From Pseudomonadota bacterium (GTDB taxonomy: Bacteria; Desulfobacterota; Desulfobulbia; Desulfobulbales; JAHJIY01): a DNA stretch of 64,000 nucleotides. Position 1 is the first letter of the stretch. Each line of letters begins with the position of its first letter. Below, piece by piece: positions 11,179-55,769 of the stretch. The stretch is taken from contig JAHJIY010000086.1 of the NCBI GenBank assembly GCA_018823175.1, positions 9,625 through 73,624 on the forward strand. The letters are read 5' to 3'. A model generated the notes under the pieces. The model ran no database searches. It was not told the DNA's origin and saw nothing but the letters and a program-made list of their open reading frames with translations. The position numbers and the translations under genes are program-made.

Positions 11179-11877
11179 CTATTCGCAGAGCCGGCCATCT
11201 TCCAGGGTAAGGCAACGATGCATCTGGCGGGCCAGGTCATAGTTGTGGGTCACCATTACCGTCGATAATCCGGATGACTGGTTAATCTCCTGGATCAGTT
11301 CGAATACCCGGTTGCCGGTGCCTGGATCCAGGTTGCCGGTCGGTTCATCCGCCAGGAGTAAGGAAGGTTTCATGATCATGGCCCGGGCCAGGGCAACGCG
11401 CTGCTGTTCACCACCGGATAATTCTCCCACCTTATGATTGAGGCGGCTGGTGAGTTCAACTCTGGCCAGGAGCTCGTGTCCTGCGGCCATTAGTTCTTTT
11501 CGGTTCATGCCGGCGATGATGGCCGGCATCACCGTATTTTCCAAAGCGGTGAAATCCGGCAGCAGGTGATGGGACTGGAAGACAAAGCCGATGGTCTGGT
11601 TACGAAAGATCGAAAGCTGGCTATCGTTTTTCAGGAAAACATCTTTCCCGTCACAGAACAGAGATCCTTCTGTGGGTCGGTCCAGGGTGCCCAGAATCTG
11701 CATCAGGGTAGTTTTGCCGGTCCCTGATTTGCCGACAATGGCGATCATCTCTCCTTTTTTAATGTGGAGATCGATGCCCTTGAGAACTTCCAGCTCATGA
11801 ACGGTGGAAAATGATTTTTTTATGCCGGTGGCCCGGAAATCAGTGGCCCGATTATTATTGTTAATATTTTTGCTCAT
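11179..11877 (-). CDS. lolD: Lipoprotein-releasing ABC transporter ATP-binding protein LolD
   Basis: Walker [13 protein letters not shown] signature LSGGEQQR and Walker B LLLADEPT. Adjacent to a LolC/E-type permease. Confidence 0.9.
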
Positions 11878-11892
11878 GGTCTTTTCGTCTTT

Positions 11893-16249: not shown

Positions 16250-16335
16250 GCGAGAGTGGCGGAACTGGTAGACGCACTAGACTTAGGATCTAGCGCCCTT
16301 CGGGTGTGGGGGTTCAACTCCCCCCTCTCGCACCA
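16250..16335 (+). tRNA. tRNA-Leu (anticodon TAG), CCA encoded
   Basis: Manual cloverleaf. Acceptor GCGAGAG/CTCTCGC, anticodon stem CTAGA/TCTAG with loop CTTAGGA, long variable arm, T-arm GGGGG-TTCAACT-CCCCC, then ACCA. Confidence 0.9.
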
Positions 16336-22510: not shown

Positions 22511-22586
22511 GGGCGGTTAGCTCAGCTGGGAGAGCATCGGCCTTACAAGCCGAGGGTCACAAGTTCAATCCTTGTACCGCCCACCA
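22511..22586 (+). tRNA. tRNA-Val (anticodon TAC), CCA encoded
   Basis: Acceptor GGGCGGT/ACCGCCC, anticodon stem TCGGC/GCCGA with loop CTTACAA, T-loop GTTCAATC. 76 nt. Confidence 0.9.
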
Positions 22587-22595
22587 CCATATTGT

Positions 22596-22672
22596 GGGGT
22601 CGTAGTTCAGTTGGTTAGAATGCCGGCCTGTCACGCCGGATGTCGCCGGTTCGAGCCCGGTCGGCCCCGCCA
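22596..22672 (+). tRNA. tRNA-Asp (anticodon GTC), CCA encoded
   Basis: Acceptor GGGGTCG/CGGCCCC, anticodon stem CCGGC/GCCGG with loop CTGTCAC, T-loop GGTTCGAGCC. 77 nt. Confidence 0.9.
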
Positions 22673-34568: not shown

Positions 34569-35047
34569 TGGCTTTCTGGGAAAAATGGAGTAATCGTGAA
34601 CGATTGATGGTTGTTGGCTGCAGTTTATTCATCCTCCTTGCCGTGGCTTATCTGCTGGTCCTTGAACCTTTTTACAGTGGCCTTGACGAGTATCGGCGAC
34701 AGGTTCCCGGACAAAGGGCCGAACTTGCCTGGATGCAATCGGCCTCGCTTCGGATCAAGGAACTCGGTGGGCCGGCGGCGGATATCGTCGGACAGAACGC
34801 CTCTCCGCTGGCGGCGGTCGATCGGGCGGCCAGGAAAATGAAGATTGATTCTGCGATTAAACGGGTTGAACCGGGGGATAATGAGACGGTGAAGGTCTGG
34901 TTTGATGAGGTCCTTTTTGATGATCTTATTGCGTGGTGCCGGGTGTTAAGTGTGGAGTATGGCATCAAGATTGTAAGTTTTTCGGCTGATCGGCAGCAGG
35001 CGCCCGGTTATGTCAGCGCCCGGGTCGTTTTTGGTGGCCGGACCTGA
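34565..35047 (+). CDS. gspM: Type II secretion system protein M
   Basis: 160 aa. One N-terminal TM helix and a ferredoxin-like periplasmic domain. ATGA overlap with gspL. Confidence 0.8.
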   Translation: MMAFWEKWSNRERLMVVGCSLFILLAVAYLLVLEPFYSGLDEYRRQVPGQRAELAWMQSASLRIKELGGPAADIVGQNASPLAAVDRAARKMKIDSAIKRVEPGDNETVKVWFDEVLFDDLIAWCRVLSVEYGIKIVSFSADRQQAPGYVSARVVFGGRT

Positions 35048-35051
35048 TAAT

Positions 35052-35822
35052 ATGAAAAAATTCTCCAAGAGATATATTGTTTTTGGCTTTACCGCCTATC
35101 TGTTTTTCCTGGCCTTGTCTTTTCCCGCAGACCGGGCCTGGTCGATTGCCGAAAAACGGCTTGGTCCGTCGTCTGCTTTGCCGCAAGTTTCCGGAATCAG
35201 CGGGGTCTGGTGGTCTGGTCGGGTTGATGAAGTCAGGTTTAATGCGATAGAGCTGCGGAATCTGCGCTGGACATTTCGCCCATTAGCTCTGGTCCGGGGT
35301 ATGGTTAAGGCGGTGGTTGCTTTTGAACCGCCGGGCGGCAACTTTGCCGGGGTTATCGCGGTCGGACGTAAAACTATTGAACTGACTAAAGTAAAAGCCA
35401 AAGTTCCTTTCGATCAGCTTAACGATATCTTGACCGTTTTTGGGGTGCAGGTAGGCGGGTTTCTGGTTGCTGATCTGCAAAAGATAATCCTGGTAGACAA
35501 ATCGCTTCTTCTGGCAGACGGTTTGCTGGTCTGGCAGGATGCGTTGGTGGAACGGCCGCAAAAACTAATTTTAGGTGAGTTGAAGGCCGCTCTGTCAACG
35601 GAAAAGGAAGGGGTGCGAGCCGTAATTTCGGACAGCGGCGGGCCTTTGGTGGCGGAGGGCATTTCCACCCTGGATTCTGCCGGCCTATATAGTCTGGCGG
35701 TTAAACTCGCCTCACGGGACTCGGCGCAGCCGGATTTGGCCGATGCCATAAAGTTGCTGGGTACACCTGGTGGTGACGGCAAGGTCTCTTTATCTTATAA
35801 CGGCAAACTGCCGGAATTTTGA
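35052..35822 (+). CDS. gspN: Type II secretion system protein N
   Basis: About 256 aa. N-terminal TM helix and GspN-like length and position. ATG 35052 lies 5 nt after the gspM stop; the ORF track starts at 35010. Confidence 0.7.
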   Translation: MKKFSKRYIVFGFTAYLFFLALSFPADRAWSIAEKRLGPSSALPQVSGISGVWWSGRVDEVRFNAIELRNLRWTFRPLALVRGMVKAVVAFEPPGGNFAGVIAVGRKTIELTKVKAKVPFDQLNDILTVFGVQVGGFLVADLQKIILVDKSLLLADGLLVWQDALVERPQKLILGELKAALSTEKEGVRAVISDSGGPLVAEGISTLDSAGLYSLAVKLASRDSAQPDLADAIKLLGTPGGDGKVSLSYNGKLPEF

Positions 35823-37324: not shown

Positions 37325-39445
37325 ATGCAAAAGTTCAAGATTGGATTGCTGATTGTCCTTATGGCAATGGGGTCTGGCCTGTATGGCTGTAGCGGTGATG
37401 ACGGGACTAACGGCGTCAATGGCGTTGATGGTGTCGATGGTTCCGATGGGACGGCAACACACACAGAGGAAAGCTGTACGGTATGTCATGGCGATAATCG
37501 GCTTTTGGATACAGCTGCCCTGCATACCGCAAACGCTACGGCCCTGGCAAACGATGATCTGGTTGGCACGGTCACGGGCATTACCGACGATGGTACTGGC
37601 CTTCTGACAATCGCCTTCTCCGTGGTCGACCAAGACGGTGCAGCAGTTACTGGCATTGCTCAGGGTCGCGCCTATCTGGCCGACATCGTCCCGGCCGGCG
37701 TTGGTACCAACACTTTTGGCTCCTCCTATTTGGAGCGTTGGGCCTACGAAACTAGTACAGGCACCTGGACAGATTTAGGTGCTGGAAACTACACCTATAA
37801 GTTTACTACCGCTGCCGTCCTTGGGGCCGCCGGTTTTGATGCCACGGCCGTAGATTTCGATACGACTCACACTCAGCGTCTGGTCTTGCGTCTTGGCGCT
37901 GATGACCATAATAACGGTCTCATCGTTCAAGACTTCAACCTGACCGGTGCCGGTGCCCAGACTCTGCTTGCTCCTCAACGCGTACTCGCCCCCACCGACG
38001 GCTGCAAGAATTGTCATAGCAACCAGATGGTCGGTGCCGCTCATGCCGATAGCTACCTCGACGTTCGCGCCTGTAACGTTTGTCATAGCCCCATCGGTCA
38101 TTACGCTGCGTCTATGACCGAAGATGATGCCTACATCGGCCGCTTTATTCATGGTATCCATGCTGCGAAGTCTTCGACTGAGTTGCCTGGTTTTGCTGAA
38201 TTTGAAGAGGGTGGCGGCCATGCCCGTTTCCCTGATGCCGCTGGCGTAGACCAAGGTTATGCGGCTGTTACCTATCCCAAAGCGATCAATGACTGTGCTG
38301 CTTGCCATACCGGCAGCGAGAGCATGACTGACGGTTGGAAGAGCAACCCGACGATGGAGATTTGTACCTCATGCCATACCTCCAGCACCGTTAATATCGA
38401 CGGCACCTTTACCCACACCGCAGAGAACACTTCTGCCCCGAGCTCCACCAAAACCAACGCTCAATGTGCCGGTTGTCATGGTGCAACGGATATAGTGGGC
38501 TACCATGCGGTGACCACGCTCAAAGGTGATTCGGCAGTATCTATCACCCCGGTCTATACGGCGACCATTGCCATGACCCCCCCCGCCAACGGTACTCACT
38601 ATGTAGCAGGTGAAGCACCAGTGGTCACGGTTACTACAACTGCATCCGGTGCCTACGACAGTCTTGACAACACTACCGATTATACTGCGGCCACTCTCTA
38701 TGTTTATGGCCCAAGGGCTGAAGCGGTACCGGTCTTGACTCCTGGTTCAACTACTGATCCTGATTATATTTCCATGATTAGTGATGACACTGATCCTGAT
38801 TATGATCCGACCGCACTTCCGACTCAGGGTCATAACATGCGCGCCAGTGATGCTGCAAGCGACGCCAATGTCCTGACCGATGCCACCGGCTTTAAGTATC
38901 AACTTCAGGCAATTCCTGCTGATCTTGCGCCGGGCACCTACATGGCTCAGGTTGCAATTGGCCATACCAGTAGCAGGACCACCGGCAGCCGTAACTACAA
39001 GATTGACGGTTGGCAGATGGTAAGCTTCCAGGTAGGAACGGCTACGACAGAGCAGAGAATTGGTGGCGATAAATGCAGCAATTGCCACGATCTGACCGAC
39101 TGGACCAGCACCTATCATCGTGCTTACTTTGGTACCGACGGTTGTAATGCCTGTCATGACAAATCGGGTAACCACGCTAATCCGATCGCCAACCGGGTCC
39201 ATGCTATCCATGCCTCTAGCGAAGCTGGCGATGCGCTTGGCGCTGATTGGGCGGAAATCACCTTCCCACAAAGCGATGTTGCTGAAGGTGAGCCTGAAAG
39301 CACGCTCTGTCAGGGTTGTCATACTACGGACAATACCAGCTACCTGACTAACCCAGGCGGCTTCCCTTGTCTTGGTTGTCATGGTGATACGCCAAATGCC
39401 GTGGATCATATGATCCAAAATGGTGCTCCGCTTGCAGCACACTAA
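37325..39445 (+). CDS. Decahaem c-type cytochrome lipoprotein, MtrC/OmcA-like
   Basis: 706 aa. Lipobox LYGC (Cys22) followed by the Gly-X-Y linker GDDGTNGVNGVDGVDGSDG. Ten CXXCH motifs have their first Cys at residues 51, 227, 250, 324, 347, 381, 584, 607, 662 and 682. Two haem-free beta-rich segments (GNYTYKF, GTYMAQV) resemble the MtrC/OmcA domain plan. Strong SD AAGGGAGAAGGG. Confidence 0.85.
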   Translation: MQKFKIGLLIVLMAMGSGLYGCSGDDGTNGVNGVDGVDGSDGTATHTEESCTVCHGDNRLLDTAALHTANATALANDDLVGTVTGITDDGTGLLTIAFSVVDQDGAAVTGIAQGRAYLADIVPAGVGTNTFGSSYLERWAYETSTGTWTDLGAGNYTYKFTTAAVLGAAGFDATAVDFDTTHTQRLVLRLGADDHNNGLIVQDFNLTGAGAQTLLAPQRVLAPTDGCKNCHSNQMVGAAHADSYLDVRACNVCHSPIGHYAASMTEDDAYIGRFIHGIHAAKSSTELPGFAEFEEGGGHARFPDAAGVDQGYAAVTYPKAINDCAACHTGSESMTDGWKSNPTMEICTSCHTSSTVNIDGTFTHTAENTSAPSSTKTNAQCAGCHGATDIVGYHAVTTLKGDSAVSITPVYTATIAMTPPANGTHYVAGEAPVVTVTTTASGAYDSLDNTTDYTAATLYVYGPRAEAVPVLTPGSTTDPDYISMISDDTDPDYDPTALPTQGHNMRASDAASDANVLTDATGFKYQLQAIPADLAPGTYMAQVAIGHTSSRTTGSRNYKIDGWQMVSFQVGTATTEQRIGGDKCSNCHDLTDWTSTYHRAYFGTDGCNACHDKSGNHANPIANRVHAIHASSEAGDALGADWAEITFPQSDVAEGEPESTLCQGCHTTDNTSYLTNPGGFPCLGCHGDTPNAVDHMIQNGAPLAAH

Positions 39446-42245: not shown

Positions 42246-43535
42246 ATGATAATGACTAAATGGTCGGGCCGTTTTTTGGGGTTGGGGATAATGTCGGTAC
42301 TATGTTTGCCGACAGCTGCTTTTGCGGCGGAGATAAGTGTTAAATCCGACACGATCTTCCGGGGCTTTGAACGGGATACCGCGACAGAGTCTGAAGCCAT
42401 GGTGCTTCCTGCCTATGAGTATCTGCAGATTGACGTTGACACTCCAGGCGAGCCGGGACTGGCTCTTCATCTTTATGGCTGGGGGCGCGGAGATTTAGCG
42501 GATAAAGATTATTACGACGACACCACGGACGGGGAAGTCCTCTATGGTTATTTGGAATATAGCAAAAAAGAGGCGCGCTTCAACGCTAAACTTGGTCGGC
42601 AGCACGTGTTTGAAGGGGTGGCCAATGAAACCTTGGATGGCTTGCGGATCAGCTCTGATCTGGGGCGGTATTTTTCCGGATCGCTCTATGGCGGACAACA
42701 GGTCGCGATGAGCGATGAACAGGGGAGGAGTGGCGACAGTATTTATGGTGGCCGTTTGTCCCATCACCTGATCGGCCGTTATGCTCTGGGGGTCTCTTAC
42801 AAGAAAATTACTAATGACAGCGAAGATGCCGAAGAGATGACCGGTGTTGATCTGGCGGCTTATCTGCCTTACGATGTAAACCTGTTTGGGAATTCCACCT
42901 ACAATTTTGAAAGCGAAGACTGGGCTGAACATTCCTATGAAATGCGCGCCACCTTCGGCCAGTTGGCGGTACGTCCATATTTCCAGAAATTTAAATATGA
43001 TGATTATTTCGCTACTGGCGCCAACAGCGCCGGTCCTTTCCGTTTTCTTGCCGACAGCGGTGAGGAGTTGACGGTAGGTGGTGGTGACTTCACCCTGTCG
43101 CTTGATTCCACCTGGGTTCTGGTTGGCAAGTTTAAACATTATACTTATGAAGTGCTTGATGACGCCTCTCCCTATTATGGTGCGCAGGCCACCTGGTCGG
43201 GTGAAAAACACTGCCAGATCGGTGGCGAGGTCGGTTATATGAATGGCGAGGTGGCGCAGAACGACTATTACCTGGTTAGACTTTTCACCTATTGGGACCA
43301 GTTGCCGGCAATCTTGCCGATTGGGTTTGTCAGTGCCGATGTAGTCTATGTTGGATATGACAAGCCGATTTACGAAGAAGACAACTCGCTTTTTGTCTCT
43401 CTTGGCGCCGGCAAAAAGTTTATGGAGGATGCGCTTGAGTTGAAACTTTCCGGTGACTACAGCAGCGATCCTTACTTTGACCAAGACGTGCGGGGGATGT
43501 TGACGGCCAGTTACCGCTTTGGCCATTCACTGTAA
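42246..43535 (+). CDS. Predicted outer-membrane beta-barrel (porin-like) protein of a porin-cytochrome module
   Basis: 429 aa. Sec signal peptide (...LPTAAFA/AE), a pervasive alternating hydrophobic/aromatic pattern, Y/G-rich turns and a near-C-terminal OMP-like ...LTASYRF. No Cys-haem motifs. Immediately followed by two cytochrome genes. Confidence 0.6.
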   Translation: MIMTKWSGRFLGLGIMSVLCLPTAAFAAEISVKSDTIFRGFERDTATESEAMVLPAYEYLQIDVDTPGEPGLALHLYGWGRGDLADKDYYDDTTDGEVLYGYLEYSKKEARFNAKLGRQHVFEGVANETLDGLRISSDLGRYFSGSLYGGQQVAMSDEQGRSGDSIYGGRLSHHLIGRYALGVSYKKITNDSEDAEEMTGVDLAAYLPYDVNLFGNSTYNFESEDWAEHSYEMRATFGQLAVRPYFQKFKYDDYFATGANSAGPFRFLADSGEELTVGGGDFTLSLDSTWVLVGKFKHYTYEVLDDASPYYGAQATWSGEKHCQIGGEVGYMNGEVAQNDYYLVRLFTYWDQLPAILPIGFVSADVVYVGYDKPIYEEDNSLFVSLGAGKKFMEDALELKLSGDYSSDPYFDQDVRGMLTASYRFGHSL

Positions 43536-43564
43536 TGGATTTAATTACGATCAGGAGTCAAGTG

Positions 43565-44035
43565 ATGCGAACGAAATTTTGGATAGGAATTGGATTGTCT
43601 CTTTTGCTGCTGGCCTTGGGTGCTTGCGCAGCATTGGATAGCGGGTTAGATCTGCCGGCACGTCATCAAACGGCGGAGGATTTGGGGGAGGCCCCGAAGA
43701 TGTGTACCAATTGTCATGAGGCGCGCGGGGAGAAGCTGGCGTTTGGCAACTTCAACCATACGGCGACCTGGATGCAGACCCATCGGCAGCAGGCATATCA
43801 ACAGGAGGCTGTGTGTTCGATGTGTCATCAGCCCAGTTTCTGTAGCGACTGTCACGCGTCACGGGTGGAGCTTAAACCATCCTTGAAGAATCAGGCGGAA
43901 ACATCCCGGCAAATGCCGCATCGAGGAGATTATCTGACCAGGCATCGGATTGATGGCCGGGTTGATCCGACCTCTTGCTTCCGCTGTCACGGTAATCCGA
44001 AATCGGCTAAAACTTGCGTCCGTTGTCACGGTTAA
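43565..44035 (+). CDS. Pentahaem c-type cytochrome (small, periplasmic or lipoprotein)
   Basis: Five CXXCH motifs (CTNCH, CSMCH, CSDCH, CFRCH, CVRCH) in about 156 aa. Signal peptide with a possible lipobox ALGAC. ATG 43565 has an AGGAG SD 7 nt upstream; the ORF track starts at 43535. Confidence 0.85.
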   Translation: MRTKFWIGIGLSLLLLALGACAALDSGLDLPARHQTAEDLGEAPKMCTNCHEARGEKLAFGNFNHTATWMQTHRQQAYQQEAVCSMCHQPSFCSDCHASRVELKPSLKNQAETSRQMPHRGDYLTRHRIDGRVDPTSCFRCHGNPKSAKTCVRCHG

Positions 44036-44111
44036 GAGATAAAGTTGAGTTGAGCAGCCTTTCTGCTCAAATGAAACTTATGCCCTTGCGGTATAAGAAG
44101 GAGAAAACTAG

Positions 44112-44861
44112 ATGCTACGCTCATTTGCCTTTTTGATGTTGTTTCTTATCCCCTTCGCCCTGACCGGTTGTGGTGAAGGAAATTCTAATGCGCCTTTGGA
44201 TACAGAGCCCCATCCAGAGTCATGGATTTCGACTCATTCTGCGGCCGCCATCGCTGATGCTGGATACACGGGATGTATCAGCTGCCACGGTTCAGATCTG
44301 ACTGGTTATGGTGAGGTGCCCAGTTGCTATTCCTGTCACGTCTTTAACACCAGCCCGCCTTTAACGATTCATCCGGCGGCCTGGACCAATATCTATGTTA
44401 ATCATCGTGGCTCAGCAGATATCACCATTTGTGAAAATTGTCATGGTGTGCTTTTGCAGGGTAGTGAGTCTGCACCCAGTTGTTATTCAAGCATTTTCGA
44501 TGGTTTAAGTTGTCATGCAGCCGGCCCAGGACAGGCGCCTCATCCCGTCGATACTTCTTATTTGTCTGGTACTGTTCATGGTCCAGTTGCCAAATCGGAT
44601 TTGAGAGTATGCCAGGCCTGTCATGGCCAGGCGGGTGGACCGGGAGATAATCCGCGCTTTAATGTCGGGATCAGTAGTGCAGGTGGTAATGGTTGTGAGT
44701 CATGCCATGGTACCAACTATGCCCATCCGGCCAGCTGGATGAGTGGTCATCGTTCAGCCGGGAATATCTCGAATGTCTGCACCCTCTGTCATGGGGTCGC
44801 TCTTGATGGTAGTGGCGGAGTAGGTATCAGTTGCGGAACATGCCATGGAATCCCAGGGTAA
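44112..44861 (+). CDS. Multihaem c-type cytochrome lipoprotein (7 CXXCH plus 1 CX9CH)
   Basis: 249 aa. Lipobox LTGC (Cys20). Seven CXXCH motifs (CISCH, CYSCH, CENCH, CQACH, CESCH, CTLCH, CGTCH) plus CYSSIFDGLSCH. Four tandem two-haem modules. AAGGAG SD. Confidence 0.85.
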   Translation: MLRSFAFLMLFLIPFALTGCGEGNSNAPLDTEPHPESWISTHSAAAIADAGYTGCISCHGSDLTGYGEVPSCYSCHVFNTSPPLTIHPAAWTNIYVNHRGSADITICENCHGVLLQGSESAPSCYSSIFDGLSCHAAGPGQAPHPVDTSYLSGTVHGPVAKSDLRVCQACHGQAGGPGDNPRFNVGISSAGGNGCESCHGTNYAHPASWMSGHRSAGNISNVCTLCHGVALDGSGGVGISCGTCHGIPG

Positions 44862-45261: not shown

Positions 45262-45759
45262 TTACTCAGGTTCGTCTGTGGAGATGTCGGAGGTGTTGTT
45301 TTCGCTATAATTTGCGTGTGCGCCACGTCTTAGCTTTTTGAAGGTTGACTCCAGAAGCTCAACTCCCAGAAGCACGCTGACTGTAACCAGCGTCAGGGCC
45401 AGGGCCGGGGACAGCATCCCGTAACCGATACAAGCCCCAATCCCTGCCAGGACCCAGATGACTGCCGCAGAGGTCACTCCCTTGACCAGGCTGTCCTTGC
45501 CCATGATTACGCCGGCCCCGATGAAACCGATCCCGGTGACGATCTGCCCGATTATCCGGGAAGGATCACGGTTTTGAGGGCTCAGCGAGTCTGCCAGGCT
45601 GACAAAGATATAGGTGCCAAGGCAGATGAGGATGCTGGTTCGGATACCGGCTGGTTTGCCGCGGAGCTGTCTTTCAACGCCGATAATGCCGCCACAGAGA
45701 ATGGTAACAAAAATAGGTACCCAGAATTCAACGGTTAGCGGGTTGAGGATGGTGTGCAT
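45262..45759 (-). CDS. mgtC: MgtC/SapB family membrane protein
   Basis: 165 aa. GGIIGVERQLRGKPAGIRT motif and 4-5 TM helices, typical of the MgtC N-domain. Confidence 0.85.
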   Translation of the reverse strand: MHTILNPLTVEFWVPIFVTILCGGIIGVERQLRGKPAGIRTSILICLGTYIFVSLADSLSPQNRDPSRIIGQIVTGIGFIGAGVIMGKDSLVKGVTSAAVIWVLAGIGACIGYGMLSPALALTLVTVSVLLGVELLESTFKKLRRGAHANYSENNTSDISTDEPE

Positions 45760-45854
45760 TTCGTCTATTTATCTCACAAAGTAGATTGGCGGCATTGACT
45801 GCTGACTAACAGGAATCAATGCCGCCATTTAAAACTAATCTCGAAAAGGCAGAT

Positions 45855-46223
45855 CTATTTGCCTTCTTTTCCGGTCAATTCCAGATAAAGTTTCAGTTCT
45901 TCTTCCGTCAGGTTTTCCAAGGAGACTTCGTCGTCTGAGGCTGGTTGGTAATCCTGCAATCTTCCATCTTCTGAATCTGCTTCGACAGTTTCGTTAGAGT
46001 GGTTATTTAGGGAGTTTTCCTCATCAGTGTAAGTGGCATCGGTTTCTTCCGGTAAAGATTCATTGTTCTCAATGACCACGGAGTCGTCTTCATCGCTGGC
46101 AGCCATAGTTATTGATGCATCGTGATCGAAGTCAGTGGCTGCTCCAATACCCGTGATCAAACTCAGACAAGTGATAACTGTAAACACGGAAATAATTGAT
46201 TTGAGCGTTAATTTTTTCTGCAT
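45855..46223 (-). CDS. Secreted, highly acidic (D/E/S-rich) hypothetical protein
   Basis: 122 aa. Signal peptide (KSIISVFTVITCLSLITGIGA/ATD); the mature part is low-complexity and acidic. Has its own TATAAT-like box (46256-46261, minus strand) and an AAAGG SD. Confidence 0.5.
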   Translation of the reverse strand: MQKKLTLKSIISVFTVITCLSLITGIGAATDFDHDASITMAASDEDDSVVIENNESLPEETDATYTDEENSLNNHSNETVEADSEDGRLQDYQPASDDEVSLENLTEEELKLYLELTGKEGK

Positions 46224-46324: not shown

Positions 46325-47650
46325 TTATAAAGTAACTACTTTAGGAAGTGGCTTGATGAAATTTTGCCGTAAACTATAGGTGTATGCTCCCTGGGTCGGA
46401 ATCATCAGAATGTCGCCGGGTTGAATGTCACCTCCCCAATAGGAATCGCCCCAGAGATCGTGAGGGGTGCATAATGAACCGACTATCTGACATGGTTTTT
46501 CTGTCAGCGCCGGGCGGCTCAGGTTTAAAACCGGGAAATAATCTACTTCGTACCTTTCCCAGCCTACGGAATTGGTCCCGGCATCAGTTATCACCAGATC
46601 ATCCATCTTTTTGTCGACCACGGAAAAAATAAGATGCATGGCATCATTGCAGATCCAGCGACCCGGTTCAAAACATATCCGACAGGAGATCCGGCTGAAG
46701 ATATGTTTTTGGATCGCCTCGGCCAGTTTCTCGGCAAAGTTGTCAATAGGGGTGGCGGCAAGCCGGTATCTTTTGCCGAAAGTTTTCGGGTAGCCAAGCA
46801 GGCCTCTGATTTTGCCGGCTTCTGTTCCTTCTTCCTGCAACCATTCACCTTGCGGCGGCCAGTAACCACCGCCAATGTCGATAAAGCTGATTTCGGAACG
46901 GAAATTATCCGGCAGGGTCTGGATTATGCTGCCGAGTTTTTTAATAAAGGAAATCTGTTTCTCAGGGTCAAGATTCCAACTGGAATGAAACTGGATACCT
47001 TCTAGTTTTACGTTGGAAGCTTCCCTGGCTTTTCGCCAGAAGGCGGATAATTCTTCCGGCAGAATGCCGAATTTACGCCAGAGACCGTGCGGGTTATTGT
47101 TCAGGCGTATTCCGGCCCTGATCTCCCGGTCCAGTGATTCGGTGATTTTTTTTAGCCTTTCCAGTTCGCCGAAACTGTCGATCAGAATAATGACCCTGTC
47201 GGCATGTTCCACGGCCAGGGTAAGTTCCTGATCGGTTTTGCCCGGGCCGCTGAAAATTATATCCGTTGCGTTTAAGCCGAGCGCCAGCTCCAGCTCAACC
47301 CCGCTTGAGACGTCAAGCCCGAATCCTGATTCCAGTAAGGTATTTGCTACCTGCGGGTGGTTGTTGCTCTTTACGGCATAATAAAATGAGGTCTCGGGCA
47401 GGTTGTTGATAAAGGCGTTTTTGAATTCATCGGCTTTTTTGCGCAGGATGGAACTGTCGAGCAGATAGATGGGTGACGACTCTTTATTAAAGGCCTGTAG
47501 GTAAAGTTCTCGACAGGAGAAATGGTGCTGGACAAATTCCCAGATCTCCTCTTGTGGCATGAACGGTGGTTCTACAAGTAGTTCTCCTGGCAGATCAGCC
47601 GGCTTAAAATGAATAAGGTTTATATCAGATAGTATTTGTTCAGTTTTCAT
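46325..47650 (-). CDS. PLP-dependent decarboxylase, Orn/DAP/Arg decarboxylase (alanine-racemase fold) family
   Basis: YYAVKSNNHP (PLP-binding Lys), DIGGGY and GSLCTPHD motifs. ATG 47650 is preferred over the TTG at 47683 used by the ORF track. Overlaps the ATP-grasp gene stop codon. Confidence 0.8.
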   Translation of the reverse strand: MKTEQILSDINLIHFKPADLPGELLVEPPFMPQEEIWEFVQHHFSCRELYLQAFNKESSPIYLLDSSILRKKADEFKNAFINNLPETSFYYAVKSNNHPQVANTLLESGFGLDVSSGVELELALGLNATDIIFSGPGKTDQELTLAVEHADRVIILIDSFGELERLKKITESLDREIRAGIRLNNNPHGLWRKFGILPEELSAFWRKAREASNVKLEGIQFHSSWNLDPEKQISFIKKLGSIIQTLPDNFRSEISFIDIGGGYWPPQGEWLQEEGTEAGKIRGLLGYPKTFGKRYRLAATPIDNFAEKLAEAIQKHIFSRISCRICFEPGRWICNDAMHLIFSVVDKKMDDLVITDAGTNSVGWERYEVDYFPVLNLSRPALTEKPCQIVGSLCTPHDLWGDSYWGGDIQPGDILMIPTQGAYTYSLRQNFIKPLPKVVTL

Positions 47651-48911
47651 GGTTTTCAATAATTTCGATTGCGAGCTGCGCAACTATTTTATCGGCCTGG
47701 GCTACCGGGTCTAAGCCGTTGGCACATTTAAAGATGATATGGCCGAGCAGCCAGGAATCATAGTCGGCCGGCGGCATATTGATTACATGGCCTGGCGTCT
47801 TGAGGATCTGCACCTTGATCACGCCAAGTTCAGCCGGCATGTTGCCAATCGTGATTTTTTTGAGAATCCCGGGTTTGGCGGCATGCAGGCGGATACAGGC
47901 GTGCGGGACCTGTTTCTTGTCATGGAAAATAAATATCTCGCGTTCCTGGGCAAAATCAAGGGCCATGGTCAGAACGTCCAGGCCCGCGACATGTCTGAGC
48001 ATGAAGGGTAGGCAGTCGCCACCCGGTCTGGGTGAAAGTTCGATAAGCACAATTTCCCCGTTTCTGACGATAAAATCGAGCATGCAGATTGCTCTTTCCA
48101 GGCCAAGGGCCTTGGCGCTTTTGACTAATATGTCTTTTAATTGTTGCGGATCAATCCCTGCCAGAACCGGTTCGGCCAGGATATAACCACGAATAGTCCC
48201 AAAAGGAGCATTTTGAGCCGGAATTTTTCGGGTCAGCCTGATAATTTCGGCCCGGCTGTTTTCAAGGATGAAATCACAACTGTATTCCGGACCATCAATG
48301 AATTCTTCGGCCAGAATCTCTGGGCTGAACCCGTATGCCGCCGCGGCCGAATTTTTTTGTTTAAAATTGTCATTAATAACCCTTAGCGCATTCCGGCTGT
48401 CTTCTCTGGTCTTACATTTGGCGACCATTTCACTGCCGGTCCCGGAAAGTGGTTTGATCACGCAAGGAGTGTGTTTGCTCTGAAAAGAGTCAATATCTTC
48501 GTCTGAATTAATCAGCGCGGTCTCAGGGCAGGACAGACCTTGCTCTCTCCAGAGTTGTTTACTGGCAAATTTGTCCCGGCAATTATGAATCGCTTTGATC
48601 GACGGATATGACAAAGAAAAATCAGAAGCAATGGTGGCTGCCAGCTCCATTGCTTCGCAATCAAAACAACATATTGAGTCAATGGTGATTTTTTCCTCAC
48701 AAAGAAAATTCAATAAAGCTGTCTGGGTCTGCTGGATATCGCTAAGATCACAGAGTATTTCTTCGTCCGTTTCCGGACGCTGCTCGCGGGCCCTCTCTCT
48801 GACCGATGAGTTGGTCAGAAAAATCGCCCGGTCGGGATTGGATTTTCTGATCAGATCGATGTAGTCTGGTGTGGTGCCGACAACAAGTAGTTTGGAATTA
48901 TTGTATCGCAA
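47640..48911 (-). CDS. ATP-grasp domain carboxylate-amine ligase
   Basis: 423 aa. CRDKFASKQLWREQGLSCPE, VIKPLSGTGSEMV, EEFIDGPEYSCDF and LIELSPRPGG match ATP-grasp signatures. Confidence 0.8.
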   Translation of the reverse strand: MRYNNSKLLVVGTTPDYIDLIRKSNPDRAIFLTNSSVRERAREQRPETDEEILCDLSDIQQTQTALLNFLCEEKITIDSICCFDCEAMELAATIASDFSLSYPSIKAIHNCRDKFASKQLWREQGLSCPETALINSDEDIDSFQSKHTPCVIKPLSGTGSEMVAKCKTREDSRNALRVINDNFKQKNSAAAAYGFSPEILAEEFIDGPEYSCDFILENSRAEIIRLTRKIPAQNAPFGTIRGYILAEPVLAGIDPQQLKDILVKSAKALGLERAICMLDFIVRNGEIVLIELSPRPGGDCLPFMLRHVAGLDVLTMALDFAQEREIFIFHDKKQVPHACIRLHAAKPGILKKITIGNMPAELGVIKVQILKTPGHVINMPPADYDSWLLGHIIFKCANGLDPVAQADKIVAQLAIEIIENHEN

Positions 48912-49866
48912 CTTTCCGGTGCCTGTGTGTGAGATTGTTGCTGCATTTTGCAGGATTATTTACCCGTAATTCAAAAAGAGGTCGAGGTGTGAGCCGGAAT
49001 CGTTCTTTCCAGCCGAAGTCGCCACAAAGAAAATCAACACTTTGCTGATGGCTGCGGCAGGCCCATTCCAGGTGATGGAAGTTTATCATCTTGGCAACGC
49101 CGGGAAATTCCGGGCTGGTGCCGCCGGCCAGCACTGTATATTGCTTGTTCCAGACCGCGCCTAGATCAATGGCTGCAACTTTGCCGCCGATAAGCACGGT
49201 GGTGATTCGCAACATTTTATTCCGGCTTAGAAATGAGATGAGTTCTTCAAATGAGAGCATGAACCGTGAATCTGCGAAATAAGAGGATTCGCCAAAGGCG
49301 TCAAGGTTCAGTTTGAATAGAAGGGCGATGTCGGCGGTCTTATTGTGGCGGAATGAAACGCCGATCTCGTCAAAGCGAGATAATTCCTTGTCTATTTTTT
49401 TACGGGACTTGTTCGGGATAAGTTCCCGGTATTTTGGAAAAGAGTAGTCAAGCGTTGGCGGATGAAACATATATCCTGTCTCATCCACCAATGCTGTAAA
49501 GCGTTTTTCCGGGAATGAACTCTTGGTCAGATATCTCAAATGAACGCGGCCGGGAGCGGCGGCAAGCATCTTGGTGAAAATATCGTTATCTTTAGCCAGG
49601 ATTCTGTTTTGTTCAAGCCAGGTTTTTCCCTGCCAGGTTTCTCCCGGGAAATGAGAAAAATACTGCTCTTTTTTGAGCCAGCTCAAGGCCAGCATTCCGT
49701 TAGGTTTCCCGTTGTTTTCCGAAACAAGAAAACATGGGCGATTGTTGTAATGTTTATGGAAGGCGTAACGCACTTCCCACAGGTCAAAGAGACATTTTTG
49801 CGGCCAGAGCTCCTGCCAGAGCTGACGGCAATCATCAAGGTCCTCGTACTCTTTTATTTGCAGCAT
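48898..49866 (-). CDS. GNAT-fold acyl/aminoacyl-transferase, CelD/BioF2-like (FemAB-related) family
   Basis: 322 aa. The C-terminal half (ITTVLIGGKVAAIDLGAVWNKQYTVLAGG...GVAKMINFHHLEWA) resembles the Acetyltransf_6-type GNAT. 14-nt overlap with the ATP-grasp gene. Confidence 0.55.
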   Translation of the reverse strand: MLQIKEYEDLDDCRQLWQELWPQKCLFDLWEVRYAFHKHYNNRPCFLVSENNGKPNGMLALSWLKKEQYFSHFPGETWQGKTWLEQNRILAKDNDIFTKMLAAAPGRVHLRYLTKSSFPEKRFTALVDETGYMFHPPTLDYSFPKYRELIPNKSRKKIDKELSRFDEIGVSFRHNKTADIALLFKLNLDAFGESSYFADSRFMLSFEELISFLSRNKMLRITTVLIGGKVAAIDLGAVWNKQYTVLAGGTSPEFPGVAKMINFHHLEWACRSHQQSVDFLCGDFGWKERFRLTPRPLFELRVNNPAKCSNNLTHRHRKVAIQ

Positions 49867-49868
49867 GG

Positions 49869-50300
49869 CTAACGCCTCAGGGATACGTTGATTATGCTGT
49901 CGCTACCGCCAAAAAAATTCTGGGTGAACCAGCGCACGACTTCAGGGGGATAAGGTTTACAGCTGAAAACATCAATGTATGCGGCATTGGTCTGGTTGGC
50001 GAAATGGCCTGAAATCAGTGAAGTCTCAATGAGTTGGACCATGGAATAGCCGGCTACTTTTTCATCTTCGCCAAAGTGAACAACCTGGGTTTCTCCGAAG
50101 CGTTTCATTTCAATGAGGTCGCAAAGTTCAACGACAAATCGACGAATTTCATCGGCATTGCGAATTTTTTCCGGATTACAGTTGTATACATCGATAGACG
50201 AGGCAATTCCCCAAACGTCAAGGGCTCTGGCTTGATCTTCTATGCTCAGGTATTTGATGTCCGTTTCTCTTGCCTCGCTTAAAACTGGTTGTAATTGCAT
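49869..50300 (-). CDS. Divergent S-adenosylmethionine-decarboxylase-like (SpeD/SpeH fold) putative pyruvoyl enzyme
   Basis: SSIDVYNC...VQLIETSLISGHFANQTNAAYIDVFSC aligns with class 1 AdoMetDC (...LWGC...[27 protein letters not shown]). ATG 50300 has a GAAAGGAGA SD; the ORF track starts at GTG 50354. Two nt separate it from the GNAT gene. Confidence 0.65.
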   Translation of the reverse strand: MQLQPVLSEARETDIKYLSIEDQARALDVWGIASSIDVYNCNPEKIRNADEIRRFVVELCDLIEMKRFGETQVVHFGEDEKVAGYSMVQLIETSLISGHFANQTNAAYIDVFSCKPYPPEVVRWFTQNFFGGSDSIINVSLRR

Positions 50301-50420
50301 TTGCTTTCTCCTTTCGGGTGCAGAGGTCTTGAATGTTGATTTGTTTAATTTCACATAAGCCTGGTTGTTTGTTTTATTACTCCAGGTTTGGCGTCGATCT
50401 TTTCAAACATTGGCGTTATT

Positions 50421-50436
50421 AGCATCTTTTATGCCA
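50421..50436 (-). promoter_or_regulatory. Sigma54 (-24/-12) promoter of the speD-like/GNAT/ATP-grasp/decarboxylase operon
   Basis: The minus strand reads TGGCATAAAAGATGCT. GG and GC have the exact consensus spacing (TGGCACG-N4-TTGCW). Lies about 120 nt upstream of ATG 50300. Confidence 0.65.
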
Positions 50437-50537
50437 ATAAGAATATAGGGCGCTAAAAAGATATAACTGTATGAAAAATGGTCTAAATGCTTGATCTTAT
50501 TATTTTTTGGACAAGGGCGGAAATGTTATTGTTGAGA

Positions 50538-50590
50538 AAAAAGAGAATATTATTGCTTATTTTTTCAAAAAGAGAATATTATTGCTTATT
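50538..50590. repeat. Two perfect 24-nt direct repeats (AAAAAGAGAATATTATTGCTTATT), period 29 nt; candidate enhancer (UAS)
   Basis: Copies at 50538-50561 and 50567-50590. They lie 100-155 bp upstream of the minus-strand sigma54 promoter, in the divergent intergenic region shared with the EBP gene. Confidence 0.6.
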
Positions 50591-50701
50591 ATTGTTTGAT
50601 ATTCTGTTTTCATAAAAGGTGTATTCCAATAAAATATAATATTTACAGTAGGTTGGTTCTGTAAATTAAAAGGTATTTTTTTTCTCTTTTCAGGTGAAAT
50701 T

Positions 50702-52129
50702 ATGTTGAAACGCTTAGTTCTGGCTATTAAGAACAAGGATTTGGAGTCAAGTCTTGAGGCTGAATTTTCAGGGGTTGATACCCAGGTTGAATGTTATGGC
50801 AGCACGAAGAATCCATGGCTTAATGCGGTACAGAGTTGTGGCGATATTATTATCGTCAGTGAGAAATTTATTCCCGGGCCTATCGAATACGGGATCGCCA
50901 TGATTAATGATCTGCCTGAGAAGCCGACCACCGTAGTCCTGCACGGGGTTGATTCCTCTCAGGAGCACGCGAAGATCGTCGCTGCCGGTGCCGATGTAGT
51001 CCTTTATGAAAGAATAACCATTCAAAGTCTTATTGAGGCCATTTATGCCACTCTGGAATCTAGGCAACAGCTTATACAGATGGAGCAACCGGGTATTCAG
51101 GTTATTCCGCCGCCCCGGATTAACGATTTTTCTTCTGAAAATGAGGAAATGCAGCTTTTTTTAAACCAGGTCCTGCAGGTGGCGCCAACGAATTCATCGT
51201 TGCTTCTTTTAGGTGAAACCGGAGTGGGCAAAGAGCATCTGGCTAAAGCGATCCATGCCAAAAGCAAAAGGTCCGGTGGACCTTTCGTTACCGTTAATAC
51301 AGCAGCTCTGCCCGAGCATCTGCTGGAAAGTGAACTTTTTGGTCATAAACAGGGGGCCTTTACCGGAGCGGTAAGGTCTAGGCGAGGGTCATTTGAACTG
51401 GCCCATGGCGGCACCATCTTTCTTGATGAAATTGGCGAAATGCCCCTGCATCTTCAGTCGAAACTTCTTCGGGTTCTGCAGGATTTTGAGGTGAAACCAG
51501 TGGGTAGCGAGAATTCGATATGGGTTGATGTGCGGGTTGTGGCCGCGACTAATCGTGACCTGGAAGAAGAGGTGACGAAGGGGAATTTCAGAAAGGATCT
51601 TTATTATCGACTAAATGTCATGACTTTGATCATCCCGCCTTTAAGGCAGCGGCAGGAGGATATCCCCGCCCTGGCGCAGCATTTTCTCCGTAATTTCCGT
51701 TATAAAATCGGTCGGGAAGTTAATTCTATCTCAGAATCTGCAATGGAGGCGCTCTGCCAATATGACTGGCCGGGAAACGTGCGTGAATTGATGAATGTTA
51801 TCGAACGGGCCATGCTTTTAAGTAAAGGGAAATCTGTTTCCATTTATGATCTGCCCAATGTTTTTCACCTTAGCAGTATCAGTAACCTCTTAACGGATAA
51901 TATTATCAAGGAGGATATGCAGGTTACAGGTTTCTGGAAAGATAAAAGTCTGGCTGAGGTGAAAAATGAAATTATCGATCGGGTGGAGATCCTTTACTTC
52001 GATATGGTTCTCAAGCAGACAAAAGGCAGAATCAGGGAGGCCGCCGGGATCGCTAAAATTCACACCCGGGCTCTTTATAACAAGATGAGAAGATTGGGTC
52101 TGAAGAAAGAAGACTATAAGGGGAAATGA
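50702..52129 (+). CDS. Sigma54-dependent transcriptional activator (bacterial enhancer-binding protein) with degenerate receiver-like N-domain
   Basis: AAA+ core with Walker [15 protein letters not shown], Walker [10 protein letters not shown], plus a C-terminal Fis-type HTH. The N-terminal ~120 aa are receiver-like but lack the acidic pocket and phospho-Asp. Confidence 0.9.
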
Positions 52130-54373: not shown

Positions 54374-54668
54374 GTTGTCGAGTTTTTTCGTCTTATAGTG
54401 GAAAGTTCTGACTTTGAAGTAAAAATAATTGTACTAAAAGTTTGTGGCGGCTTGTTTGGTGATAAATTAACGTTTATTTTAATGGCGGGTATAAAAATTA
54501 GTACCTCTTAATATCCTGTTTTTATTGATTAATTGTTGAAAGTACTTTGGGGAGGAGGGTGGGTATAAATAATTATATCGAATGTCGCTGTGGATGGAAT
54601 GACGGTCTTTCGTTATAACTGCTTGATATTGTTTGGTTTTAGTTGAAAAATGCAATAATATTTTTTAT

Positions 54669-54684
54669 TGGCATGGCTATTGCT
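54669..54684 (+). promoter_or_regulatory. Sigma54 (-24/-12) promoter
   Basis: TGGCATGGCTATTGCT matches TGGCACG-N4-TTGCW at all key positions with correct GG-GC spacing. Predicted TSS near 54695. Confidence 0.65.
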
Positions 54685-54694
54685 CTATTACAAT

Positions 54695-54768
54695 ATCAAA
54701 TAAAGAAAACTTCCCTCCTTTCTCTAAAAAGGTCGACCTCCTCCCCCTTGGTCGGCCTTTTTTCTTTT
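54695..54768 (+). ncRNA. Candidate sigma54-dependent small RNA or attenuator leader (C-rich, terminator-ended, ~70 nt)
   Basis: Runs from the predicted TSS to the intrinsic terminator. Contains CUUCCCUCCUUUCUCU and a terminator loop UCCUCCCCCUU (anti-Shine-Dalgarno-like CCUCC motifs). No ORF. Confidence 0.3.
54729..54768 (+). terminator. Rho-independent terminator-like hairpin
   Basis: AAGGTCGACC (54729-54738) pairs with GGTCGGCCTT (54750-59, one G-U pair). 11-nt C-rich loop, then TTTTTTCTTTT. Confidence 0.65.
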
Positions 54769-54800
54769 CAAGCCCAATATATTTCTCTGATCGGCAAATT

Positions 54801-55769
54801 ATGAAGGATCTGAACAATCAGTTAAAGGTAGCGTTAGTCTCATGCAAAAATTATGAGCGGCGCTTAATGAAAGAGCAGATTGATCAAATCTGCCATGCTT
54901 TAAACTTTCGACCACCGGCCGGGAGTCGGGTTCTTCTCAAGCCTAATCTTGTTTCTGCCGGCAGTAGAGGTAATATTGCCTGTACAAATGCGGAGTTTGT
55001 GGCGGCCGTCGCCGAGTGGATGCTTGATCATGGGGCTATGGTTAAAATTGGTGATTCACCGGCTTTTGGCAGTGCCTGTAAAGTGATGGCGGCCTCTGGT
55101 ATATCTGAGGCCTTGCACGGTTTGCCGGTCACTATGGTGGATTTTAGCGATAATCGTTCAGTATCTTTGCCCTGCGGTCTTGAAACGGCGATTGCCGTTG
55201 AGGCCCTTGAATGTGATCTCCTGGTTAATCTGCCGAAGATAAAATCTCATTGTCAGTTATTGGTCAGCCTGGCGGTAAAAAATTATTTCGGAGTGGTGGT
55301 TGGTTGGCGCAAGCCATTGATTCATGCCAGATATGGAGAGGTGGATAATTTGTTTGAGGCCTTACTGGTAGATTTGCCGGAGATGGTCCCGTCAGGTATC
55401 TCTCTGCTGGACGGGGTTGTTGCCATGCAAGGAAACGGTCCCTTGAAGGGGGATCCCTTTTCTCTGGGACTGCTGGCCGGGGCAATTAACCCGGTGGCCG
55501 TTGATTCCGCTCTGCTCAAAATTCTGGGGCTGGAACCGGAACAAAGTCCTCTCTGGCGTGAATGTGCGCGCAGAAAATTACCCGGGGTCAAAAATCAATC
55601 TCTTGTATATCCCCTGTTGATGCCCGATGAACTTCGGGTCAGTGATTTTGAAGTGGTACAGCCGCTAAAGCCGGTGACTTTTCATCCCGGCAAATTGTTT
55701 GTCGGCGGGTTGAAACGGGTGGCGACTTCTTTAGCTGATAGAGTTAACTATGGTAACCACAAGAGCTGA
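54801..55769 (+). CDS. DUF362 domain-containing protein
   Basis: About 322 aa from ATG 54801 (MKDLNNQLKVALVSCKNYE...), which resembles the DUF362 family N-terminus and length. The ORF-track extension to 54633 spans a promoter and a terminator and is rejected. Confidence 0.6.
   Translation: MKDLNNQLKVALVSCKNYERRLMKEQIDQICHALNFRPPAGSRVLLKPNLVSAGSRGNIACTNAEFVAAVAEWMLDHGAMVKIGDSPAFGSACKVMAASGISEALHGLPVTMVDFSDNRSVSLPCGLETAIAVEALECDLLVNLPKIKSHCQLLVSLAVKNYFGVVVGWRKPLIHARYGEVDNLFEALLVDLPEMVPSGISLLDGVVAMQGNGPLKGDPFSLGLLAGAINPVAVDSALLKILGLEPEQSPLWRECARRKLPGVKNQSLVYPLLMPDELRVSDFEVVQPLKPVTFHPGKLFVGGLKRVATSLADRVNYGNHKS

Follow-up and report, generated by a model that had tools for sequence, protein, structure and literature searches.

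We analysed a 64,000-nucleotide stretch of DNA (hereafter the window; positions 9,625 to 73,624 of the forward strand of contig JAHJIY010000086.1, GenBank assembly GCA_018823175.1, Desulfobulbales in the GTDB lineage) in which four tightly packed minus-strand genes lie divergent from the gene of a sigma54-dependent activator. In gene order, the four encode a pyruvoyl enzyme of the S-adenosylmethionine decarboxylase (AdoMetDC) fold, a tandem GNAT transferase, an ATP-grasp ligase and a pyridoxal phosphate (PLP)-dependent decarboxylase. We propose, at what we judge to be about an even chance, that they form an inducible and self-contained operon for the biosynthesis of a small amine-derived amide with a putrescine base. 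All five proteins come from known superfamilies; it is their combination that is new, and it is one of amino-acid/amine conjugate assembly independent of nonribosomal peptide synthetases (NRPS). Polyamine metabolism is regarded as well mapped, and the operon suggests a widespread, tightly conserved branch of it whose carriers are mostly uncultured anaerobes (sulfate reducers, Planctomycetota, Lentisphaeria and candidate phyla).

The four genes are conserved together across phyla

Databases contain more than 5,000 relatives of the first protein of the operon; the best 120 show 66-100% identity and represent many lineages. With one genome scanned per species, at least 585 related stretches were recovered; lineages were surveyed in the best 80 loci, and gene order was analysed in 82 loci, two of them on the same contig. 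That the four genes are kept together elsewhere, the point on which an earlier note on this DNA had staked its proposal beforehand, was borne out. All four are present in identical order and orientation in 70 of the 82 loci, nine loci end at a contig edge inside the operon, and the three exceptions are a truncated operon (L049), one disrupted by an insertion element (L060) and one with a masked stretch (L076). Median identity to the window proteins was 73% for the pyruvoyl enzyme, 56% for the activator, 54% for the PLP decarboxylase, 48% for the GNAT and 40% for the ATP-grasp ligase.

Carriers among the best 80 loci included, on the sulfate-reducer side, Desulfobacterales, Desulfobulbaceae, Desulfocapsaceae, Desulfatiglandales and Desulfarculaceae (Thermodesulfobacteriota), and elsewhere Phycisphaerae and other Planctomycetota, Lentisphaeria, Sumerlaeota, Zixibacteria, Krumholzibacteriota, Hydrogenedentota, Nitrospirota, Armatimonadota and Omnitrophota. 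The operon is spread among anaerobic bacteria of at least ten phyla. The earlier note had called it an orphan, which holds in the sense of uncharacterised and fails in the sense of isolated, since many species carry it. Desulfoluna butyratoxydans, Desulfobacter latus, Desulfocicer vacuolatum and Desulfobacula toluolica are cultured carriers, and locus L055 comes from a metagenome-assembled genome (MAG) assigned to the cultured species Desulfosudis oleivorans. In this last locus about 900 nt (11594-12495) separate the ATP-grasp and decarboxylase genes, which adjoin or overlap in other loci.

Clustering of the flanking open reading frames (ORFs) of the 82 loci revealed no conserved transporter, exporter, antiporter, cell-wall gene or NRPS-independent siderophore (NIS) synthetase. 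Nor was speE, casdh/casdc or hss conserved beside the operon and, among ORFs of at least 70 aa, there was no conserved small ORF there that might encode a carrier protein. One ATP-grasp homologue (P0501, 44% identical) is annotated from a 'Candidatus Hodarchaeota archaeon' MAG, and represents either a transfer into Asgard archaea or a binning contaminant.

The first gene probably encodes a SpeDC-type ornithine decarboxylase

Pfam placed all five proteins, above curated cut-offs, in the families that the earlier note had read from the letters of the window. The pyruvoyl enzyme matched AdoMet_dc (PF02675) at 77.1 bits against a cut-off of 25, and failed the AdoMetDC equivalog model (TIGR03330, SAM_DCase) with 26 bits against a cut-off of 75.65. 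In the report that describes SpeDC enzymes (Li et al., J Biol Chem 2023, PMC10407285), the key residues of Thermotoga maritima AdoMetDC are S63 (the pyruvoyl precursor), H68 and C83. Their equivalents in the window protein are S94, H99 and C114, which are invariant in 25 family members; the identical motif is present in the canonical SpeD of locus L076. From these residues the enzyme is predicted to cleave itself between T93 and S94, with H99 and C114 being catalytic.

SpeDC is an ornithine-decarboxylating offshoot of class 1b AdoMetDC, for which the same report gives a diagnostic Gln, Thr, Phe and Tyr, in that order, in the central region, together with loss of a Pro that true AdoMetDCs retain there (PMC10407285). 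The window protein reads VQLIETSLISGHFANQTNAAYIDVFSC, with Q89, T93 (directly preceding the cleavage Ser), F100 (directly following the His) and Y108, and its motif is VQLIETSLISGHFAN..Y.DVFSC, with HFAN in place of the AdoMetDC HTWPE. A search of 1.84 billion cluster representatives returned two-domain relatives whose N-terminal half is canonical (ESH...HTWPE...FTC) and whose C-terminal half (QLIETS...HF...Y.D.FSC) has the same pattern as the window enzyme, and in SpeD-SpeDC fusions it is the C-terminal domain that is the ornithine decarboxylase, as shown in that report (PMC10407285). The clusters of these fusion representatives contained no accession linking them to the assayed SpeDC proteins.

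The gene neighbourhoods of several relatives were those of spermidine synthesis. One fusion (P0247), whose C-terminal domain is 66% identical to the window enzyme, is encoded directly upstream of a spermidine synthase gene; P0312, 45% identical, lies in a speD-speD-speE cluster; and in P0263 a SpeDC-like domain is fused to spermidine synthase itself. Taken together, motif and architecture indicate that the first gene probably encodes a SpeDC-type enzyme, which would make putrescine from L-ornithine.

Locus L076 contains, in addition to the operon, a canonical speD-speE pair (5866-7157 and 8244-8918) 3 kb upstream, and there a TetR gene, not the activator gene, precedes the operon. The canonical SpeD of this locus had no significant BLASTP similarity to the window pyruvoyl enzyme. 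The operon copy in L076 is therefore a separate paralogue, and both kinds of SpeD occur in one genome. Single-sequence and profile searches of the PDB with the pyruvoyl enzyme gave nothing significant, AdoMetDC entries probably being stored there as cleaved chains.

Several further relatives deserve mention in their own right. P0255, 51% identical to the window enzyme, is phage-borne; its gene (6001-6432 of L085 and L086) lies, together with Sipho_Gp157 and a DNA methylase, on a 39.5-kb phage-like contig found in about 20 samples. In P0292 and P0262, SpeDC-like domains are fused to an Acetyltransf_1 GNAT and to a SET domain, two fusions that are not mentioned in the accessible portions of PMC10407285. 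P0247 (L084, 6001-6852) carries Trp at positions of conserved Gly in the window protein (RFWDT, HFWED), and translation of its locus with table 11 does not reproduce the stored protein. Both features suggest that the lineage recodes UGA (code 25, UGA = Gly) and that its genes were called under the wrong code.

Three partner enzymes with conjugation-type relatives

The GNAT matched Acetyltransf_6 (PF13480) at 66 bits, above the curated cut-off, and had no sequence match in the PDB and no match at all among NCBIfam models; some family members are also annotated with PF09924 (LPG_synthase_C, the MprF C-terminal domain). Its structure model (predicted local distance difference test score, pLDDT, 89.8) has a tandem GNAT fold. 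The top Foldseek matches (9wqx, 1xe4, 1ne9, 9goe and 4v35; E 3e-11 to 2e-8, template modelling (TM) score about 0.6) are led by the Sbb17/Sba18 aminoacyl-tRNA-dependent peptide synthases, followed by FemX and then by MprF-type aminoacyl-phosphatidylglycerol synthases. The fold of FemX, Sbb17 and MprF is the closest structural match to the GNAT, which differs from these enzymes in its Pfam family (PF13480, with FemAB PF02388 not matched) and is 10-13% identical in sequence to its best fold matches. On the strength of the model, we predict the GNAT to be an aminoacyl-tRNA-dependent aminoacyl transferase that acts on an amine.

The third protein matched ATP-grasp_4 at 68 bits, above the curated cut-off, and scored 22.6 bits for LAL_C2 (PF18603; cut-off 29.4), a family that is precomputed on many of its relatives. 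Its best PDB sequence matches were 4dim, BL00235 and BacD, and the best folds found with its model (pLDDT 90.1) were BL00235 (TM 0.78), RizA and BacD. The ligase is nearest to L-amino-acid ligases, not to D-Ala-D-Ala ligase (Ddl) or RimK/LysX-type enzymes, and a carboxylate-amine ligase of the L-amino-acid-ligase type is its closest predicted assignment.

The fourth protein passed the cut-offs of both Orn_Arg_deC_N (101.6 bits) and Orn_DAP_Arg_deC. Its family, compared in 68 members, conserves the motifs AVKSNN, FHSSWN, DIGGGYW, EPGRW, CTPHD and QGAYTYS, in which we recognise the PLP-binding Lys, the GGG loop, EPGR, the catalytic Cys and GAY. In a PDB comparison the protein was roughly equidistant from diaminopimelate decarboxylase (DAPDC), lysine/ornithine decarboxylase, FslC (N-citrylornithine) and BtrK, whose substrate is L-glutamyl-acyl carrier protein (ACP). 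The catalytic-Cys motif is CTPHD in the window protein (GSLCTPHD, invariant in the 68 members), CTPED in BtrK (GPLCTPED), CETGD in DAPDC, CDSVD in lysine/ornithine decarboxylase and CMQHD in FslC. At the positions of IRPxxY and CE(S/T)xD in DAPDC, which presumably bind the distal end of diaminopimelate (DAP), the window protein has GWERYE and CTPHD. These missing DAP-binding residues, together with a score of 153.7 bits against the 297.9-bit cut-off of the lysA equivalog (TIGR01048), refute an identity as LysA. The lack of an acidic residue after the Cys and the likeness to BtrK and FslC weakly suggest that the decarboxylase acts on an alpha-amino-acid moiety whose far end is conjugated, in an amide or similar linkage.

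Organization and regulation of the operon

The ORF list gave four ORFs on the minus strand (46325-50354) and one divergent ORF on the plus strand (50702-52129). The close packing described in the earlier note was confirmed base by base: the TAG stop of the first gene (49869-49871) is followed by cc and the ATG of the GNAT gene (49866), a 2-nt gap; the TTG start of the ATP-grasp gene (48911) overlaps the GNAT TAA (48898-48900) by 14 nt; and the decarboxylase ATG (47650) overlaps the ATP-grasp TGA (47640-47642) by 11 nt. For the first gene the most plausible start is ATG 50300, which has an AGGAG ribosome-binding site ahead of it. Feature coordinates are collected in Table 1.

Table 1. Features of the operon, its promoter region and the divergent activator gene (window coordinates)
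Feature	Position	Strand	Basis
Sigma54 enhancer-binding protein, 475 aa	50702..52129	+	Pfam, orthologues
Two tandem direct repeats	50538..50593		Repeat search, family D1
Sigma54 -24/-12 promoter TGGCAT-AAAAG-ATGCT	50421..50436	-	Motif match, GG-N10-GC
SpeDC-type pyruvoyl decarboxylase proenzyme, 143 aa, predicted L-ornithine decarboxylase	49869..50300	-	Pfam, motifs
Tandem-GNAT transferase of FemX/MprF type (predicted), 322 aa	48898..49866	-	PF13480, structure model
ATP-grasp carboxylate-amine ligase (predicted), L-amino-acid-ligase type, 423 aa, TTG start	47640..48911	-	Pfam, structure model
Fold-type III PLP-dependent decarboxylase, 441 aa, not LysA	46325..47650	-	Pfam, motifs

The consensus-spaced sigma54 promoter that the note had seen is likewise present: the element TGGCATAAAAGATGCT, with GG-N10-GC spacing, lies inside the 400-nt divergent intergenic region. 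TGGCAY-N6-TGCW occurs twice in the 64-kb window, this element included, where 0.56 occurrences would be expected. Of 52 activator-linked intergenic regions, that of the window among them, 42 have a -24/-12 motif ahead of the operon; loci without the activator mostly lack it. The divergent gene, which had also been read as a sigma54 activator, scored 234.7 bits for Sigma54_activat and 97.8 bits for AAA_lid_14 and contains GAFTGA in its translation, with a weak C-terminal match to HTH_8 (16.8 bits). Its residues 1-143 matched no Pfam family, receiver domain included, and the N-terminal 140 or so residues are conserved among orthologues. Our impression by eye is of a degenerate receiver with Glu replacing the phospho-Asp, a domain that Pfam does not find there.

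In 51 of the 82 loci a full-length activator orthologue (49-64% identity) is encoded divergently from the operon, and in 13 loci without the activator a TetR-family gene lies directly upstream on the same strand. Control by sigma54 and an enhancer-binding protein, as the earlier note had proposed for the window, is thus common among the loci, not obligatory. We predict that the four enzymes are co-transcribed from the sigma54 promoter under a divergent activator that is dedicated to them in most lineages, with TetR in this place in others. Since there is no other conserved neighbour, the enzyme quartet is the core of the system and the regulator is exchangeable.

Two 27-nt tandem repeats, AAAAAGAGAATATTATTGCTTATT(T/A)TT (spacing 29 nt; identities 100% and 96%), sit about 100-170 nt upstream of the -24 element, and from their position are a candidate activator binding site (upstream activating sequence). 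A k-mer and dyad search of the intergenic regions for an activator site common to the loci gave AT-rich words only. An Rfam scan of the whole window returned three tRNAs only, with no match in the leader. In a comparison of the leaders of 42 loci, conservation was confined to close relatives, which argues against a general riboswitch or leader peptide. The Desulfosudis-like loci L027, L040 and L055 have a stretch of about 410-435 nt between promoter and first gene that is 70-79% conserved throughout, and L001, L032 and L046 have a conserved segment in common within leaders of about 470-490 nt, L001 with a called 112-aa ORF (7436-7774). Small genes, or leader elements particular to a lineage, may be present in these stretches.

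Two genes follow the operon on its own strand (45262-46223), one for a 122-aa acidic protein, with a signal-peptide-like N-terminus and no Pfam match, and one for an MgtC-family protein. No terminator-like site was scored between them and the operon, and neither gene is conserved in the other loci, except for MgtC in L011.

Proposed pathway and alternative explanations

In the pathway that we propose, the activator (TetR in other lineages) would sense a signal and switch the operon on, and the SpeDC-type enzyme would convert L-ornithine to putrescine. The ATP-grasp ligase would activate an amino-acid carboxylate as an acyl phosphate and join it to putrescine or to a diamino-acid side chain, the FemX/Sbb17-like GNAT would use aminoacyl-tRNA to add another aminoacyl group to a free amine, and the BtrK/FslC-like decarboxylase would strip the alpha-carboxylate from an amino-acid moiety whose opposite end is conjugated beforehand. 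This would yield a cationic pseudo-oligoamine free of carboxylates, for example aminoacyl- or aminoacyl-(omega-aminoacyl)-putrescine, where we leave the order of steps two to four and the choice of amino acids unspecified. In its simplest form it would consist of putrescine bearing one or two aminoacyl-derived units. As no exporter is conserved, it would probably be intracellular, for example a stress-induced polyamine analogue.

There are precedents for the ligation step in phevamine biosynthesis, where ATP-grasp enzymes ligate amino acids to polyamines (PMC6187163), for the GNAT step in Sbb17, which according to the title of its PDB entry (9wqx) aminoacylates a small-molecule amine from aminoacyl-tRNA, and for the decarboxylase step in FslC and BtrK, which act on N-acylated or thioester-bound amino acids. 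The earlier note had seen in these genes a toolkit for an amine-derived amide, and this remains the best reading, with no conserved NIS synthetase, carrier protein or transporter. Its list of product candidates can be narrowed, as the SpeDC-type identity of the first enzyme favours a modified polyamine or pseudopeptide over a siderophore. More tentatively, we consider it possible that the product represents a new class of polyamine derivatives, amide-linked putrescine pseudo-oligoamines assembled by ATP-grasp and aminoacyl-tRNA ligations and trimmed by a PLP decarboxylase.

Several observations weigh against this scheme. The positions of the diagnostic SpeDC residues were deduced from the text of PMC10407285 together with the fusion architecture, and the SpeDC-like clade includes a true AdoMetDC, that of Sinorhizobium phage phiN3 (PMC9992855), whose relatives, at 31% identity, were the only phage matches to the window enzyme. 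The operon-type pyruvoyl subfamily is unusually conserved (62-80% identity across phyla), which could reflect a substrate other than free ornithine. Acyl-CoA tandem GNATs (VipF, 2wpw, the clavulanate tandem GNAT and glucosamine N-acetyltransferase) appear in the same list of fold matches with E values that are only slightly weaker, so that the donor of the GNAT is a matter of inference, and the link between the decarboxylase and BtrK hangs on one short motif.

The phage AdoMetDC in the clade bears directly on a rather unlikely alternative, in which the product is an amine-derived amide not built on putrescine. The pyruvoyl enzyme would here have shifted to AdoMet, arginine, an N-substituted ornithine or a pathway intermediate, and the product would be another pseudopeptide, a signal or a metal-binder. 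The operon-type enzymes do form a tight group with invariant residues of their own (for example HFAN and SCKPY), and unlike validated SpeDC genes they occur in a context without speE, casdh/casdc or hss. However, all four residues reported as diagnostic of ornithine decarboxylation (PMC10407285) are present, including the Thr before the cleavage Ser; the homologue in Sinorhizobium phage phiM12, a close relative of the assayed phiN3 AdoMetDC, has Asp in place of T93. The 66% identity to a SpeDC domain in a speE context, and the absence of a conserved aminopropyltransferase nearby that could use decarboxylated AdoMet, also argue for ornithine.

Remodelling of peptidoglycan precursors, which we regard as improbable, would assign the FemX-like transferase and the ATP-grasp ligase to the extension of a UDP-MurNAc-peptide by side-chain or cross-bridge residues, the LysA-like decarboxylase to the free D-centre of peptide-bound meso-DAP, and putrescine to covalent attachment to the stem peptide. 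The scheme is coherent, as a precedent in cell-wall chemistry exists for every enzyme type. FemX and FemA, fold neighbours of the GNAT, act on peptidoglycan precursors, but the top matches, Sbb17 and Sba18, act on a small molecule. The ATP-grasp D-aspartate ligase Aslfm builds peptidoglycan side chains, and in Selenomonas and Veillonella cadaverine or putrescine is linked to peptidoglycan D-Glu in an ATP-dependent manner; the operon ligase, however, is nearest to the free-amino-acid ligases BL00235, RizA and BacD and not to Ddl. A decarboxylase that is DAPDC-like yet without the residues for the distal end of free DAP would fit a peptide-bound end, and the lack of a conserved exporter fits as well. 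Against these stand the flanks of the 82 loci, in which no cell-wall gene, be it mur, ddl, pbp or another, is conserved, and the dedicated inducible regulator, which is more typical of specialised metabolism.

We consider it highly improbable that the genes form a module for catabolism or acid stress, with both decarboxylases serving to degrade amino acids or consume protons and no biosynthetic product being made. Two decarboxylases under an inducible regulator would suit such a module, and some sigma54 regulons control amino-acid and polyamine catabolism, but no antiporter or transporter is conserved in the 82 loci, and an ATP-consuming ligase and a FemX-like transferase fit neither catabolism nor proton consumption. 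Finally, although automatic annotation names an 'S-adenosylmethionine decarboxylase' and places the other decarboxylase in a lysA-like family, housekeeping lysA and speD genes adjoining unrelated genes by chance can be dismissed almost entirely, a reading that the earlier note had named as one that would refute its proposal: both proteins fall far below the equivalog cut-offs, chance adjacency is ruled out by the overlapping ORFs and by a gene order fixed in 70 of the 82 loci across phyla, and a separate canonical speD-speE pair coexists with the operon in L076.

Relation to known systems

We found no description of the four-gene combination in full-text literature, in line with the note's failure to match it to a known pathway, although an account in a subscription journal is possible. 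The operon was not mentioned in sigma54 regulome papers, and no curated NCBIfam model reached its cut-off for any of the five proteins.

The proposed SpeDC-type enzyme has the AdoMet_dc fold, the self-processing Ser with His and Cys, the Gln, Thr, Phe and Tyr and the loss of the AdoMetDC Pro in common with SpeDC as set out by Li et al. (PMC10407285), and is 45-66% identical to SpeDC-clade members adjoining speE. Validated SpeDC genes accompany speD/speE, casdh/casdc or hss and supply the synthesis of spermidine or homospermidine (PMC10407285), whereas here the gene heads an operon that lacks a polyamine synthase and in which its partners are the genes of the FemX-like GNAT, the ATP-grasp ligase and the PLP decarboxylase. 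The phevamine (hsv) operon of Pseudomonas syringae is alike in being a small dedicated operon within a specialised regulon that conjugates amino acids and a polyamine independently of NRPS by means of ATP-grasp enzymes; it differs in having an amidinotransferase and two ATP-grasp enzymes, in using host spermidine, and in having neither decarboxylase nor GNAT (PMC6187163). The operon in the window, in contrast, is predicted to make its own amine and has a tRNA-type transferase.

In butirosin biosynthesis the AHBA side-chain enzymes BtrJ, an ATP-grasp enzyme, and BtrK, a fold-type III PLP decarboxylase of a conjugated amino acid, likewise work as a pair ahead of an acyl-transfer step, and CTP(H/E)D is common to BtrK and the operon enzyme. 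That pathway differs in its use of the carrier protein BtrI and its need for BtrO/V, BtrH and BtrG, none of which is conserved around the operon, and a butirosin-type carrier-protein pathway was rejected since there is no ACP. FslC, PvsE and SbnH (rhizoferrin, vibrioferrin and staphyloferrin) resemble the fourth protein as LysA-like decarboxylases of an N-acylated diamino acid; FslC was among its best PDB matches, and the vibrioferrin route also has an ATP-grasp enzyme. The 82 loci differ from NIS siderophore clusters in having no conserved NIS (IucA/IucC) synthetase, citrate-handling enzyme, receptor or exporter. The absence of NIS synthetases that the earlier note had remarked on in the window thus extends to the other loci, and a siderophore cluster was rejected for this reason. 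As for known anti-phage defence, PADLOC models matched none of the four enzymes, and the activator matched only generic RtcR/PspF AAA models, so this candidate was rejected as well. What sets the operon apart from known systems is its predicted SpeDC head enzyme and tRNA-type transferase, the regulators dedicated to it and its broad distribution across lineages.

If the proposed pathway is correct, the GNAT would perform the first tRNA-dependent step in polyamine metabolism, and the pyruvoyl enzyme would have the first SpeDC role outside spermidine and homospermidine synthesis, giving these recently discovered enzymes a second physiological context. A new acceptor class for FemX-type transferases is also possible. 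The product would then be an inducible intracellular metabolite of anaerobic sediment bacteria in more than ten phyla. The four genes, in about 4 kb, are small enough for heterologous expression followed by liquid chromatography-mass spectrometry, cultured carriers exist, and the dedicated activator, or TetR, offers a handle on the inducing signal.

Other features of the window

Elsewhere in the window (33327-35822, 37325-39445 and 42246-44861), genes for the type II secretion proteins GspL and GspN adjoin a gene for an MtrC/MtrF-like outer-membrane decahaem cytochrome, followed by a 429-aa ORF without a Pfam match and by two small multihaem cytochromes. We take the 429-aa ORF, by eye, to be an outer-membrane beta-barrel, and the region as a whole looks like an extracellular-electron-transfer module of what appears to be a Desulfobulbaceae-like MAG. 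The second and only other sigma54 motif match in the window, TGGCATGGCTATTGCT (54669-54684, plus strand), is placed shortly before the point at which a DUF362 gene (ORF 54633-55769) probably truly starts, and could be a further sigma54 promoter. The window also contains three tRNA genes (16250-16332 and 22511-22669), two of which adjoin each other.

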